Of a stretch of DNA of 40,276 nucleotides, positions 6,486-35,549 are shown piece after piece. Made by a program: the position numbers and the translations under genes. The notes beneath the pieces are model-generated. The model had not been told where the DNA came from. It did not search any database and saw nothing but the letters and a program-made list of their open reading frames with translations. How positions within the stretch are numbered: the first letter of the stretch is position 1; each line of letters starts with the position of its first letter. Origin of the DNA: a virus; the UHGV virus genome UHGV-0069047, one strand, 5' to 3'.

Positions 6486-6500
6486 TTACCTTTCAGGTAA
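6486..6500. promoter_or_regulatory. operator-like palindrome TTACC-TTTCA-GGTAA
   Basis: Perfect 5-N5-5 inverted repeat, intergenic. Confidence 0.5.
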
Positions 6501-6537
6501 TTTGCAAAACGTGCTGGATAGCAAACAAATTATTTGC

Positions 6538-6557
6538 TACTGTATAAATATACAGTT
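6538..6557 (+). promoter_or_regulatory. LexA (SOS) box upstream of antirepressor module
   Basis: TACTGTATAAATATACAGTT matches CTGT-N8-ACAG with AT-rich spacer, 5 nt before the first ATG. Confidence 0.6.
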
Positions 6558-6577
6558 ATTGCATGGAGAAGATTAAG

Positions 6578-6835
6578 ATGCAGCAGTATAACTATCCACT
6601 GGAAGACGGATTTACCGAAAGGATTCACACGCCGGGAGGCGTCAGGTCACTGGTGGAGGGATCGCACTTGATGAAATTACTCCGGGATCTCGATAAGGAT
6701 GGATTTAATGTCGATGGCCCACTTGCCGAACTGACTGCACTGATTAACTACGTCACCAGCTCACAGATGTCTATGCAGGATCTGCAAACACATCTCGACT
6801 ATTGTGCCGAACAATTACGAAAGCAAACCAGATAA
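6578..6835 (+). CDS. small protein homologous to the C-terminal domain of the adjacent antirepressor
   Basis: Aligns with the C-terminal ~70 aa of the 7153..7809 product; SD GGAGAAG before ATG 6578. Confidence 0.45.
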   Translation: MQQYNYPLEDGFTERIHTPGGVRSLVEGSHLMKLLRDLDKDGFNVDGPLAELTALINYVTSSQMSMQDLQTHLDYCAEQLRKQTR

Positions 6836-6866
6836 GGTTTGCAATTACCAAGTGGAGTGCTTATAT

Positions 6867-6881
6867 TTACCTTTGCGGTAA
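6867..6881. promoter_or_regulatory. operator-like palindrome TTACC-TTTGC-GGTAA
   Basis: Perfect inverted repeat, upstream of antirepressor gene. Confidence 0.45.
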
Positions 6882-6972
6882 ATTTACATCGCACTCCTCT
6901 TGTGCCATAGTAATCAGGCACTGGCAAAATCCAGTGCCGGGATTGGTCTCCCGGATTACTAAGTGGCGCATA

Positions 6973-6995
6973 CCACGCCAGACGTGGTTTTTTTA
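6973..6995 (+). terminator. rho-independent terminator
   Basis: CCACG-ccaga-CGTGG followed by TTTTTTTT. Confidence 0.55.
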
Positions 6996-7152
6996 TGCGT
7001 ATAGCACAGTCATGCCAGAATTATGGTGGGCTGAATGGGGGTCCGAAAGGACGCCGGTACCACTTAGGCCGGTAAGACCAACTCCGTTCAGTTCACCACC
7101 ATCTGATTGGTCTCAGCGGTGGTGATGTAATTCGCTAAGTGGAGACGCCATC

Positions 7153-7809
7153 ATGAACGCTCAACTCATCCCCGTATTCAACGGCACTATATCTAACGAA
7201 ACAGCCCTACTTTGTAATGCCCGCGATCTGCACGCTTTTTTAGGTGTTAAAAAGGTGTTTGCAGCATGGATTACAAATCGCATTTCAGAATACGAATTCA
7301 TTGAAAATCAAGACTATATTTTGCTTTCCAATTTGGGAAAGCAAACATCTGGTAGAGGCGGACACAACCGCAAAGAGTACCACCTCACCCTTGATACAGC
7401 CAAAGAGCTGGCGATGGTCGAGCGTAACGAAAAAGGTCGCCAGGTGCGACGCTACTTCATTGAATGCGAGAAACGTTTAAGACAACAAGAAACAAAAGTG
7501 GAGAAGGTCTTGTCAGGCTTCATGCCCGCCATTATGGAGGCGATCAAGCTGGAAGACAAAAAAGAATACAGTGCACCGCTGAAGCCCGGCTACCGGAGCC
7601 TGATTCATTCGCCGTCTGGTGTTCTCGGCCTGACGGAGAACTCACTGCTGATGAATTTGCTGAACCAGTTACAGGAAGACGGGCATGACGTATCGGGCGC
7701 GGCGGCGGAACTGACCACCATGTTCTGCTACATCGTTGGTGTGAGCAAATGCCTGCGTGATATCCAGACTCACGCGGAGTACATCAACGACAAAGCAGGA
7801 TTCTTCTGA
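7153..7809 (+). CDS. antirepressor (AntA-type N-terminal domain)
   Basis: N-terminal block (IPVFNGT...[10 protein letters not shown]...[32 protein letters not shown]) matches the AntA/AntB antirepressor domain as I recall it; SD GGAGACG. Confidence 0.65.
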
Positions 7810-7853
7810 CTAGCGGCGGCACAGGGATGTGCCTTTAAATAATTCTGTACAGA

Positions 7854-7896
7854 TTGCAGACTGGGGGTGAATAGAGTACTATTACCCCAAAGGTAA
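7854..7896 (+). promoter_or_regulatory. sigma70-like promoter (TTGCAG-17-TACTAT) overlapped by operator TTACC-CCAAA-GGTAA
   Basis: -35 at 7854-7859, -10 at 7877-7882, palindrome at 7882-7896, strong SD GAGGGGG follows. Confidence 0.5.
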
Positions 7897-7922
7897 ACCG
7901 AGAGTTTACATGAGGGGGAAAC

Positions 7923-8111
7923 ATGGAAATCAACATCATTACATTGCTGAAGGCCATTATTGGCGGAGCGGGCTTAGGCTTTGCCCTACCAGGCGGATTA
8001 TCTTTCCTGCTTCCTGCTTTTACTGTTACAGCTGGGATAGCCTATGCATTTGCTGTGGCTGGTGCTGTTGCACTCCCTGCTATCTATGCCGCAAAGAAGT
8101 TAGCCAACTAA
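7923..8111 (+). CDS. small hydrophobic membrane peptide (62 aa)
   Basis: Strong SD; Gly/Ala-rich, two predicted TM helices. Confidence 0.5.
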   Translation: MEINIITLLKAIIGGAGLGFALPGGLSFLLPAFTVTAGIAYAFAVAGAVALPAIYAAKKLAN

Positions 8112-34079: not shown

Positions 34080-34094
34080 GATTAATCTCCGCTA

Positions 34095-34358
34095 TCAGCT
34101 TGAATGTTGTGGGGAGGAATTAATCATGATCTGCTTAATCTCTGCCCTGATACGACGGTTTGATTCCATGGTGCACTCAACACAGTGTCCATTGTAAACC
34201 CAGCGTTCACTGTCATGTCCGTGCTTACATGTTTTTCCGGTGTAGTAGCGTTTAAGTCCGCGCTTTGCGGCATCAATACGTGTAATGATTTCCATGGTAA
34301 GCCCTGTTATTAGTATTGGGATTACGGTTATTTTGTGCTGACACAAAAAAAAGATCAA
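34095..34358 (-). CDS. small zinc-finger protein at the cII position
   Basis: Likely start at MEIITR; CKHGHDSERWVYNGHCVEC cluster; between cro-like and O-like genes. Confidence 0.4.
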   Translation of the reverse strand: MIFFLCQHKITVIPILITGLTMEIITRIDAAKRGLKRYYTGKTCKHGHDSERWVYNGHCVECTMESNRRIRAEIKQIMINSSPQHSS

Positions 34359-34375
34359 CCATATTTGGTTTTTTA

Positions 34376-34390
34376 TTACCTTTAAGGTGC
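34376..34390. promoter_or_regulatory. imperfect operator-like site TTACC-TTTAA-GGTGC
   Basis: One half-site variant; adjacent AACCATATTTGGTT palindrome. Confidence 0.35.
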
Positions 34391-34445
34391 GAATAGATAT
34401 GAAAAGACCGCCGGGTGGCGGTCTACAGAGGGGTGTAGCTGGATA

Positions 34446-34676
34446 TCATGAGTAGAAGAAGTATGCCAGTTCTGCTTTTGAGCGCAACCATTGTCTTGTT
34501 TTACAGGCTTTAAAAAGCCCGTTCATCAATACTTTACCTGGCATTTTGCGCTTACCTGTTAAGTGAGTCTGGATATAGTGACTCGTCGTTCCGGCTTCCT
34601 GTGCGAAGGCTTCACGCTCATCCGGAGTAAGTGCAAGCCAGTGCTTTTTGAAATCGAAATGTCCGTTATCGCTCAT
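34446..34676 (-). CDS. Cro-like HTH regulator
   Basis: 76 aa with HTH-like segment; divergent from repressor gene; first gene of the replication-side operon. Confidence 0.5.
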   Translation of the reverse strand: MSDNGHFDFKKHWLALTPDEREAFAQEAGTTSHYIQTHLTGKRKMPGKVLMNGLFKACKTRQWLRSKAELAYFFYS

Positions 34677-34712
34677 AGCTATTGCCTGATATTTATTTCA
34701 GATAATAAATAT

Positions 34713-34775
34713 TCACCCATAAGGTAACAAAAATCAAGGATAGTTACCTATGAGGTGCATTTACCTGTTGGGTAA
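34713..34775. promoter_or_regulatory. OR-like operator cluster in the immunity switch
   Basis: Three sites: TCACC-N5-GGTAA (34713-34727), TTACC-N5-GGTGC (34744-34758), TTACC-N5-GGTAA (34761-34775). Confidence 0.55.
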
Positions 34776-34830
34776 TATTGCTTTAAATTGAATCATCTAC
34801 TGATTCATATATGAGGCGATTTTCCAGAAA

Positions 34831-35415
34831 ATGAAAAGTATCCAGGACGTCCGCAGGCAAAATCTCAACGACTTGATCGACCGTGAATTCAATGGTGTTC
34901 AGACGCGGATGGCAGAAAAACTTGGAACTCAGGCAAATCTGGTAAACCGCTGGGCTCTTGGCAAGAAGGTTATCGGCGACCAGGTTGCGCGAAAAATTGA
35001 AGCTGCCGCCAATAAACCACGTAACTGGCTTGATATCGATCGCTCGCTTTCTCAGGAAGGTTTTCAGCCTGTCGGCCCAAGCGACATTGGTCAGCTGGCG
35101 GCTCACAACCTGGAACGCTGGATGAGCGAAAGCCGCGACCTTTCAACACAGGGAAAACTTCACCGCGCATCCGGCGTCGCCCAGGTGACAATCAGCCGCC
35201 TGTTAAACAATGAGGTCAGCGTTTCCATTTCCACCCTGGAGAATGTTGCATCCGCATTCGGGCGTCACGGCTATGAATTACTGATTCACCCGCACGACCC
35301 TGCGACCATCAACTATGACCGCTCGCGCTACGCATTGTTACCCGAAACCGAGAAAGCAAAGATCGAAAGTTACATTGAATTTGTCATCAACCAGAACGAA
35401 AAAAACAAACAATAA
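34831..35415 (+). CDS. prophage repressor-like protein lacking an S24 peptidase domain
   Basis: 194 aa with two HTH-like segments, no Ala-Gly / Ser-Lys autocleavage module; divergent from cro-like gene. Confidence 0.55.
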   Translation: MKSIQDVRRQNLNDLIDREFNGVQTRMAEKLGTQANLVNRWALGKKVIGDQVARKIEAAANKPRNWLDIDRSLSQEGFQPVGPSDIGQLAAHNLERWMSESRDLSTQGKLHRASGVAQVTISRLLNNEVSVSISTLENVASAFGRHGYELLIHPHDPATINYDRSRYALLPETEKAKIESYIEFVINQNEKNKQ

Positions 35416-35436
35416 AATCATATTTTTCAGTAAGTA

Positions 35437-35461
35437 AGCCGCCTTCTGGCGGCTTTTTTAT
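35437..35461 (+). terminator. rho-independent terminator after repressor gene
   Basis: AGCCGCC-ttct-GGCGGCT followed by TTTTTTA. Confidence 0.65.
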
Positions 35462-35472
35462 TGTCTACACAA

Positions 35473-35549
35473 TTACCTTAAGGGTAATTTTTTTAACTCA
35501 TATCTATTGACACCAAACCAAATACGCATAATCATTACCTCAACGGTAA
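35473..35549 (+). promoter_or_regulatory. PL-like early promoter with two operators
   Basis: TTACC-TTAAG-GGTAA (35473-35487), TTGACA at 35507-35512, weak -10, TTACC-TCAAC-GGTAA (35535-35549). Confidence 0.5.

Follow-up and report, generated by a model that had tools for sequence, protein, structure and literature searches.

A dispersed TTACC-N5-GGTAA palindrome as the putative operator of the Rep repressor in a phiV10/epsilon15-type prophage of Escherichia coli

The virus genome UHGV-0069047, a stretch of 40,276 nucleotides (nt) referred to here as the window, carries repeated copies of the palindrome TTACC-N5-GGTAA between its genes, and the question that they raise is which protein reads them and what this reading would do to the neighboring transcription units. 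A preliminary description of the same DNA had proposed that one repressor, the 194-amino-acid (aa) product of the gene called rep here, directly silences many dispersed promoters through these sites. Our analysis points to the palindrome as the operator of the N-terminal helix-turn-helix (HTH) domain of Rep, placed at almost every transcription-unit boundary, with a probability that we put at roughly 0.85. Binding by Rep itself is what we infer from the observations below, and promoter assignments and looping are given as predictions.

Occurrence and conservation of the palindrome

An exact scan of both strands located 10 perfect copies, at positions 6486, 6867, 7882, 25297, 28491, 32368, 32430, 34761, 35473, and 35535. 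The eight perfect copies listed previously were all correct, those at 28491 and 32368 having been missed. Dinucleotide shuffles gave a mean of 0.01 perfect sites, and 0 of 100 shuffles reached 10, in agreement with the earlier estimate of well under one copy by chance. Allowing one mismatch added only the sites at 28473 (TAACC...) and 34713 (TCACC...), giving 12 sites versus 0.57 expected. Among the three sites formerly described as one-mismatch variants, 34713 was correctly classed, whereas 34376 and 34744 have two mismatches each, both reading TTACC-N5-GGTGC. Two-mismatch matches were not counted as operators in general, and only these two were kept. In total, 12 to 14 sites were spread over nine intergenic regions spanning ∼29 kb. 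Control scans found no perfect site in phage lambda and none in 50 kb of the flanking E. coli chromosome.

The position of the sites relative to genes was established on a manual, synteny-based gene map, which replaced a greedy map of open reading frames (ORFs) and a tblastn search of all ORFs, in which off-frame ORFs also found matches. On this map the non-coding share of the window was 8.5%, and it held all 12 sites with no more than one mismatch (naive probability, 0.085^12, or ∼1e-13), as had been claimed for the motif from the start. For the sites at 28473 and 28491, intergenic status depends on the small terminase gene (TerS) having its start at the ATG at 28471, a start that agrees with the annotations of epsilon15, SPC32H, and Tyrion. 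In the phiV10 annotation (41-715), TerS starts upstream of both operators, as does the longest ORF in the window (27841-28569); the phiV10 start is probably annotated too far upstream.

A set of 57 sites yielded the 17-bp consensus aTTACCwnWnwGGTAAt, in which the central base was A or T in 112 of 114 symmetrised sites; the N5 spacer was variable and the arms were invariant. A full-text literature search with the consensus string returned no match. These figures leave practically no chance that the palindrome is not a protein site, be it a repeat produced by chance or by base composition, a hairpin or terminator in the RNA, the target of a restriction-modification system, or the relic of a duplicated promoter. 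Although the two 62-bp promoter cassettes described below are alike, so that a duplication is conceivable, 10 sites stand against 0.01 expected, the arms do not change while N5 does, and the site persists across genera in intergenic DNA that has otherwise diverged. Moreover, a 5-bp stem with two G-C pairs is too weak for a stable hairpin, and a restriction target would be expected to be avoided, whereas the motif is enriched. Chance, an RNA hairpin or terminator, and a restriction target are effectively refuted by the counts, the invariant arms, the intergenic restriction, and the conservation of the cassettes.

The sequence identifies the window as a podophage of the phiV10/epsilon15 type (genus Uetakevirus) integrated in E. 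coli. Aligned in reverse orientation, phiV10 and its close relatives were 96 to 98% identical to it along the greater part of its length. Bases 1 to ∼1700 correspond to E. coli yfgG-yfgH-yfgI, and the att core ATTGAGTGGGAATGATT, identical to the published one (PMC9782041), was found at 1716-1732; host genes at the left end followed by an att core identify the window as an integrated prophage. The gene order of phiV10 and epsilon15 would place the integrase gene outside the window, beyond its right end.

In all five relatives checked, TTACC-N5-GGTAA was the commonest palindrome of the 5-N5-5 type, with 8 perfect copies in phiV10, 11 in epsilon15, 10 in SPC32H, 9 in Tyrion, and 9 in the Klebsiella phage BUCT711, while any other such palindrome had at most three copies in the genomes checked. 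The orthologous positions comprised the sites at TerS, at gp3, and between ant and the tail-fibre gene, the three sites at OR, the PL pair, and the pair at the third promoter. The RefSeq record (NC_004775) of Salmonella phage epsilon15, the Uetakevirus type phage, contains seven features labeled "protein_bind: repressor / lysogeny," all of them TTACC-N5-GGTAA. Three of them follow the repressor gene; of the other four, one each is located in front of TerS, gene 3, and gene 43, and one separates gene 19 from the tail-fibre gene. With these sites already annotated there, and with earlier work on the Rep/Ant system of SPC32H, the operator is a known feature and not a new one. We have not seen annotated either the pairs that bracket a promoter at 62 bp or the operator at the promoter of the immI-like module; the incremental points of this work are thus the conserved 62-bp pairs, the operator on that module, and the covariation of N5 and N4 spacers with the HTH domain.

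Rep and its link to the palindrome

Rep consists of an N-terminal HTH DNA-binding domain (approximately aa 1 to 70) and a C-terminal HTH_3-like oligomerisation domain, and its homology to the Rep protein of Salmonella phage SPC32H extends along the entire protein (PDB 5D50; E = 4e-42, aligned over aa 1 to 190). A Pfam scan of Rep returned HTH families only, with no S24 peptidase (Peptidase_S24) domain. The protein is 100% identical to the repressors of phiV10 and ZX5 and 42% identical overall to that of epsilon15, with the N-terminal domain conserved. Similarly, the HTH domain is kept among Uetakevirus Reps that are otherwise only 42 to 45% identical, and in the alignment the predicted recognition helix, NLVNRW, was invariant among enterobacterial homologues. 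Secondary literature describes SPC32H Rep as a tetramer on palindromic DNA in which each DNA-binding pair is made up from different dimers, and reports its disassembly by the tetrameric antirepressor Ant (PMC9638917). A further secondary source links its tetramerisation domain, of p53-like fold, to DNA looping and calls the repression mechanism not extensively characterized (PMC9986798). Overexpression of the ZX5 repressor reduced the endolysin and holin transcripts by >99.9% (PMC9782041).

An IMG/VR search with Rep found >200 contigs with a relative; the 80 that were kept all encoded a 100% identical Rep and therefore inform on prevalence and site constancy, not on diversity. The OR site proximal to rep was present in all 80 and the PL pair in ∼77 to 79 of them. 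This immunity type is common, the OR-rep-PL segment being present in 561 of 5,426 complete E. coli genomes.

For diversity, an alignment of the N-terminal domain was searched against one genome per species. The enterobacterial prophages with an NLV(N/S)RW helix, from Superficieibacter, Erwinia, Pseudescherichia, Klebsiella, and Citrobacter, all carried TTACC-N5-GGTAA at OR, and 62-bp operator pairs were also seen in those loci whose flanks reached far enough. In Pseudomonas (phage PseuP_224 and a P. vancouverensis prophage, of a siphovirus-type background), the homologues have the helix ANYISRC and a C-terminal region that is longer than that of Rep and unrelated to it, and TTACC-N4-GGTAA lies beside the gene. 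For its part, the Solimonas homologue (helix SYVSKI) showed neither the N5 nor the N4 motif at its locus. This covariation of motif and HTH domain is the best computational evidence gathered here that the N-terminal domain of Rep would be what reads the motif.

The N-terminal domain of the Pseudomonas repressors was ∼40% identical to that of Rep, and their half-site was the same, with a spacer one base shorter; the N4 copies were located at ∼19900-19990 in PseuP_224 and at 1142-1194 and 2045 in the second locus (L097). The Solimonas gene was flanked by unrelated inverted repeats instead.

The same comparison bears on the idea that the palindrome is bound mainly by some other regulator, such as the 76-aa cro-like protein, the gp49-like protein encoded upstream of TerS, or a PerC-like activator, and serves lytic-phase control or activation. 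The cro-like protein is itself likely to bind at OR, since a Cro protein and its repressor normally use common operators, and sites just upstream of a -35 element, such as 6867 for the IsrK promoter and 25297 and 6486 for the leftward genes, would suit an activator. However, the motif follows the N-terminal domain of Rep across unrelated phage backgrounds, with N4 in Pseudomonas and no motif in Solimonas; most sites overlap a -35 element, a -10 element, or +1, which is a repressive geometry; and the epsilon15 annotators gave the sites to the repressor. We therefore regard another main reader as quite improbable. The assignment to Rep made in the preliminary description is in agreement with the epsilon15 annotation, with the synteny in six genomes, and with the covariation of motif and HTH domain.

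The immunity core, the dispersed operators, and the antirepressor genes

Judging from gene order and site positions, the layout of the core is lambda-like, with cro and rep divergent from OR, a terminator after rep, and then PL (Table 1). The three sites between the cro-like gene and rep, already pointed out before, keep their spacing of 31 and 17 bp in all six genomes. The distal one overlaps the -35 element and spacer of the leftward cro-like promoter (TTGTTA-17-TATTAT), and all six genomes have a site with one or two mismatches at its position. The position of the middle one holds a perfect site in epsilon15, SPC32H, and BUCT711, and phiV10 and Tyrion keep the GGTGC form; in view of this conservation, 34744 is a probable, putative weaker operator. 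The product of the cro-like gene had no Pfam match. The site at 34376, which follows the cro-like terminator and precedes the p42-DnaT-P replication genes, has a one-mismatch counterpart in phiV10, and it is, like 34744, a plausible candidate for a weak operator.

Table 1. Positions of the predicted operators and associated features in the window
Feature	Position	Strand	Basis or remark
Operator between tail-fibre gene (minus, ATG 6381) and ant (plus)	6486-6500		
LexA box TACTGTATAAATATACAGTT, CTGT-N8-ACAG	6538-6557	+	Sequence
ant, small antirepressor, 85 aa	6578-6835	+	From ATG 6578 (ORF opens 6563)
Operator at immI-like module promoter(s)	6867-6881		
immI-like module	6918-7809	+	Rfam and Pfam
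Operator before rightward accessory operon	7882-7896		Overlaps -10-like TACTAT 7878-7883
Accessory operon: orf82, orf110, orf77	7910-8158, 8113-8445, 8471-8704	+	
Operator between divergent gp3/portal structural operon and tRNA-Arg(UCU)/p03-like unit	25297-25311		
TerS operator pair	28473-28505	-	28505-28491 perfect; 28487-28473 one mismatch
Second promoter cassette	32368-32444	-	Conserved in six genomes
Candidate weak operator TTACCTTTAAGGTGC, 2 mismatches	34376-34390		Assignment uncertain
Terminator after cro-like gene	34424-34405		
cro-like gene, 76 aa, divergent from rep	34446-34676	-	Synteny with phiV10p41 and epsilon15 gp39
OR site distal to rep, TCACCCATAAGGTAA, 1 mismatch	34713-34727		Position conserved
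OR middle site, TTACCTATGAGGTGC, 2 mismatches	34744-34758		
OR site proximal to rep, perfect	34761-34775		17 bp centre-to-centre from middle site
rep, 194-aa repressor	34831-35415	+	Homology and Pfam
rep terminator	35436-35455		Precedes PL-like cassette
PL-like promoter cassette	35473-35549	+	

Downstream of rep, two sites flank TTGACA-17-AATCAT in an OL-like manner, as had been proposed. This PL-like cassette runs from O_up (35473-35487) through a 19-nt gap, TTGACA (35507-35512), a 17-nt spacer, and AATCAT (35530-35535) to O_down (35535-35549), and it lies upstream of p39, p38, recE, recT, alpA, and the genes downstream of them, which it would drive. The second cassette, a predicted third early promoter placed after the terminator of the P-like replication gene (a terminator annotated in phiV10), is composed of O_up (32444-32430), TTGATT (32410-32405), a -10-like element (∼32387-32382), and O_down (32382-32368). 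This O_down extends over the Shine-Dalgarno sequence of the DUF1064 gene (ATG 32364) as well. With two cassettes in each of six genomes, the order O_up, 19 nt, ctaTTGA (-35), 17 nt, -10, and O_down was the same at 12 of 12, and the operator centres were 62 bp apart (63 in one). The O_down sites fall at +1 to +15, within the transcribed leader.

Outside the core, the two TerS operators are 18 bp apart, lie between a terminator (28542-28525) and the TerS ATG, and cover the ribosome-binding region. In epsilon15 a matching pair is found just upstream of TerS, at 12 and 30, the first of the two being annotated as a repressor site; phiV10 has the same pair, and SPC32H and Tyrion have a perfect site at this position. 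On the minus strand, the segment 28525-28594, downstream of the gene for the gp49-like regulator, carries a promoter-like GTGACA-18-CATGAT and then a strong terminator, an arrangement that recalls lambda PR'-tR' and, by analogy, suggests that late control may proceed by antitermination.

The TerS pair and the O_down sites are those that would best fit a different mode of action, in which some of the palindromes act as stoperator-like roadblocks to elongating RNA polymerase. The TerS pair follows the GTGACA-18-CATGAT element and the terminator, with no good promoter from there to the start codon, and the O_down sites are inside a leader. Such a role is nevertheless unlikely, given that the sites are perfect palindromes without orientation bias, that none was found within or between the genes of a long operon, and that all are at unit boundaries near -35/-10-like elements; the hallmarks of stoperators, namely, asymmetry, orientation with transcription, and an intra-operon position, are absent.

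The operator at 25297 separates the gp3/portal operon (minus strand, ATG 25206) from the rightward unit of tRNA-Arg(UCU) and the p03-like gene, and its epsilon15 ortholog (2931-2947) is an annotated repressor site. By manual reading, a plus-strand TTGACA (25275-25280) is followed after 17 nt by the -10 element TACCTT inside the operator. The epsilon15 ortholog of the operator at 6486 (19895-19911) is likewise annotated as a repressor site. The operator at 7882 marks the candidate promoter from which the accessory operon would be transcribed.

As for the antirepressors, the promoter that had been attributed to an antirepressor moron corresponds to two separate genes: 6486 belongs to the small Ant with its LexA box, and 6867 belongs to the larger AntA gene through an IsrK/C4 leader. 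Ant has 87% identity to its SPC32H counterpart (E = 3e-56) and is encoded at the same place, beside the tail-fibre/tailspike gene. The predicted LexA site CTGTATAAATATACAG (6540-6555) fills the spacer of the ant promoter, from TTGCTA (6534-6539) to TATTGC, and CTGT-N8-ACAG is present at the same place of the ant promoter in five of the six genomes. In SPC32H, ant is reportedly under LexA control (Kim and Ryu, 2013). Prophages of the phiV10 type are inducible by DNA-damaging bacteriocins (bioRxiv 10.64898/2026.05.26.727859).

At 6867, the -10 element of a TTGCAA-17-TATATT promoter ends at the first base of the operator, and the -35 element of the IsrK promoter, TTTACA, starts at 6883; phiV10 has the matching site at 20497. 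The immI-like module contains the Hfq-binding small RNA IsrK with its terminator (6918-6994; Rfam, 67.7 bits), the C4 antisense RNA (7019-7103; Rfam, 61.2 bits), both above the gathering score, and the gene for an AntA-domain antirepressor (7153-7809; PF08346, E = 4e-26). No icd-like ORF was found in the module, where the IsrK small RNA is inserted. The IsrK promoter TTTACA-17-(TG)CATAGT (6883-6911) places +1 at the 5' end of IsrK. With its C4 and IsrK RNAs, the module may form a second antirepressor circuit, gated post-transcriptionally in the manner of P1 immI. The segment 6836-8704, that is, this module plus orf82-orf110-orf77, is absent from the similar prophage of E. coli PEC399 (27627-28213), in which ant is followed directly by an orf98 homologue. 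On this comparison, the segment is a variable cargo region, each unit of which carries its own predicted Rep operator.

Several other features were observed near these sites. A second palindrome, CCATATATGG or near variants of it, is present at 6448-6457, 25247-25256, and 34359-34368, 17 to 50 bp from the operators at 6486, 25297, and 34376; these copies precede the tail-fibre gene, gp3, and p42, respectively, and the pattern AACCATATATGR had 6 matches versus 0.24 expected. A TTACC half-site precedes the copies at 6448 and 25247, and the one ahead of the tail-fibre gene is retained by all six genomes. This palindrome could be part of activator-dependent promoters or the site of another regulator. 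Between the operator at 25297 and tRNA-Arg(UCU) (25632-25708), the interval 25312-25708 includes ∼320 non-coding nt with matches in Tyrion and SPC32H (in tblastn, through spurious ORFs); an RNase III processing site is annotated for the equivalent part of epsilon15, and an Rfam search of the non-coding stretch in the window found no family. Finally, the DnaT-like gene (33264-34079) contains tandem repeat arrays at 33643-33772 (a 24-bp unit repeated 2.6 times with 100% match, a 12-bp unit repeated 2.4 times, and an 18-bp unit repeated 2.9 times), which look like origin iterons, as in lambda O.

Proposed regulation and comparison with known systems

In the lysogen, Rep tetramers would occupy the dispersed operators and shut off each unit directly, blocking initiation by covering the -35 element, the -10 element, or +1. 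At the 62-bp pairs, which correspond to approximately six helical turns, a single tetramer, with its two DNA-binding units, might hold both operators and clamp or loop the enclosed promoter. This micro-loop clamp, along with the notion of Rep as a genome-wide silencer acting unit by unit rather than at the top of a cascade, is offered tentatively, and we consider it more doubtful than probable. Induction would take place without RecA-mediated cleavage of Rep: upon DNA damage LexA would leave the ant promoter, and Ant would dismantle the Rep tetramers.

A number of results weigh against the reading of the palindromes as Rep operators that silence promoters, or narrow it. Only 3 of 30 two-mismatch sites were intergenic, about what chance gives and without enrichment as a class, so that 34376 and 34744 are proposed on position and conservation only. 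The matches to the promoter consensus were weak at TerS, gp3, the tail-fibre gene, and orf82. The TerS operators lie 3' of a terminator without a clear promoter, and promoter occlusion may therefore not apply to them. A promoter scan around 25297 detected no promoter, and those assigned there come from manual reading only. A loop of 62 bp would be very tight. Lastly, the cro-like protein probably shares the OR sites, which makes "one repressor" a simplification.

If Rep acts as proposed, the operator map would explain why every transcription unit, accessory genes included, should be silent in the lysogen, and homo-immunity is predicted among phages with a common N-terminal domain of Rep. It also offers defined targets for strictly lytic derivatives or for Rep-controlled expression cassettes; phages of the phiV10 type serve as O157 reporters and as an engineering chassis. 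Little is added beyond the epsilon15 annotation except for the 62-bp pairs, which make looping by Rep directly testable. Should the clamp be true, the p53-like "TetDloop" tetramerisation fold of SPC32H Rep would gain a defined natural looping substrate.

Among known systems, the window is closest in its testable features to the Rep-Ant system of epsilon15 and SPC32H, all of which were found in it (Rep domains, ant locus, LexA box, and syntenic operators). With epsilon15 it shares an identical core motif, the gene order, and dispersed annotated sites orthologous to its own. epsilon15 has three sites in the PL region and one at the lysis cassette, whereas the window has additional sites at the IsrK-C4-AntA module and the accessory operon; in the epsilon15 record, no annotation is given for its OR sites or, in some pairs, for the second member. 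SPC32H (PDB 5D50 and 5D4Z) has homologous Rep and Ant proteins, a LexA box, and the same operator motif at the same places, but it differs in its host and in the C-terminal sequence of Rep, and it lacks the AntA/IsrK/C4 module of the window.

The preliminary description had placed the system nearer to P1 C1 operators or mycobacteriophage stoperators than to lambdoid immunity, a view that held for the P1-like dispersal but neither for stoperators nor for the core, whose layout is that of lambda. The stoperators of cluster A mycobacteriophages, bound by L5 gp71, are 13 bp long and asymmetric, follow the direction of transcription, and block elongation from positions inside operons. They resemble the sites of the window only in being many repressor sites distributed genome-wide; because the window sites are palindromic and promoter-proximal, they are not stoperator-like. 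The P1 C1 regulon, in turn, also has many scattered operators, each at its own unit, and in P1 immI (c4 antisense RNA, icd, and ant) a repressor-controlled promoter leads, as is predicted for the window, to a C4 RNA and then to the gene for an antirepressor. However, C1 is not known to be of the XRE HTH type, and its 17-bp operators are asymmetric, whereas Rep is XRE/HTH_3-like and its predicted operators are palindromic; thus, Rep is not a member of the C1 family, and the likeness is functional only. In comparison with lambda, Rep lacks the S24 autocleavage domain and induction would depend on an antirepressor, the PL operators flank the promoter at 62 bp, and many operators are found outside the immunity region, including before the late genes. 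With the lambda CI system the window shares an HTH repressor, a tripartite OR between cro and the repressor gene, and then a co-directional PL with operators, and by analogy with CI, cooperative or looping binding by Rep oligomers is likely.

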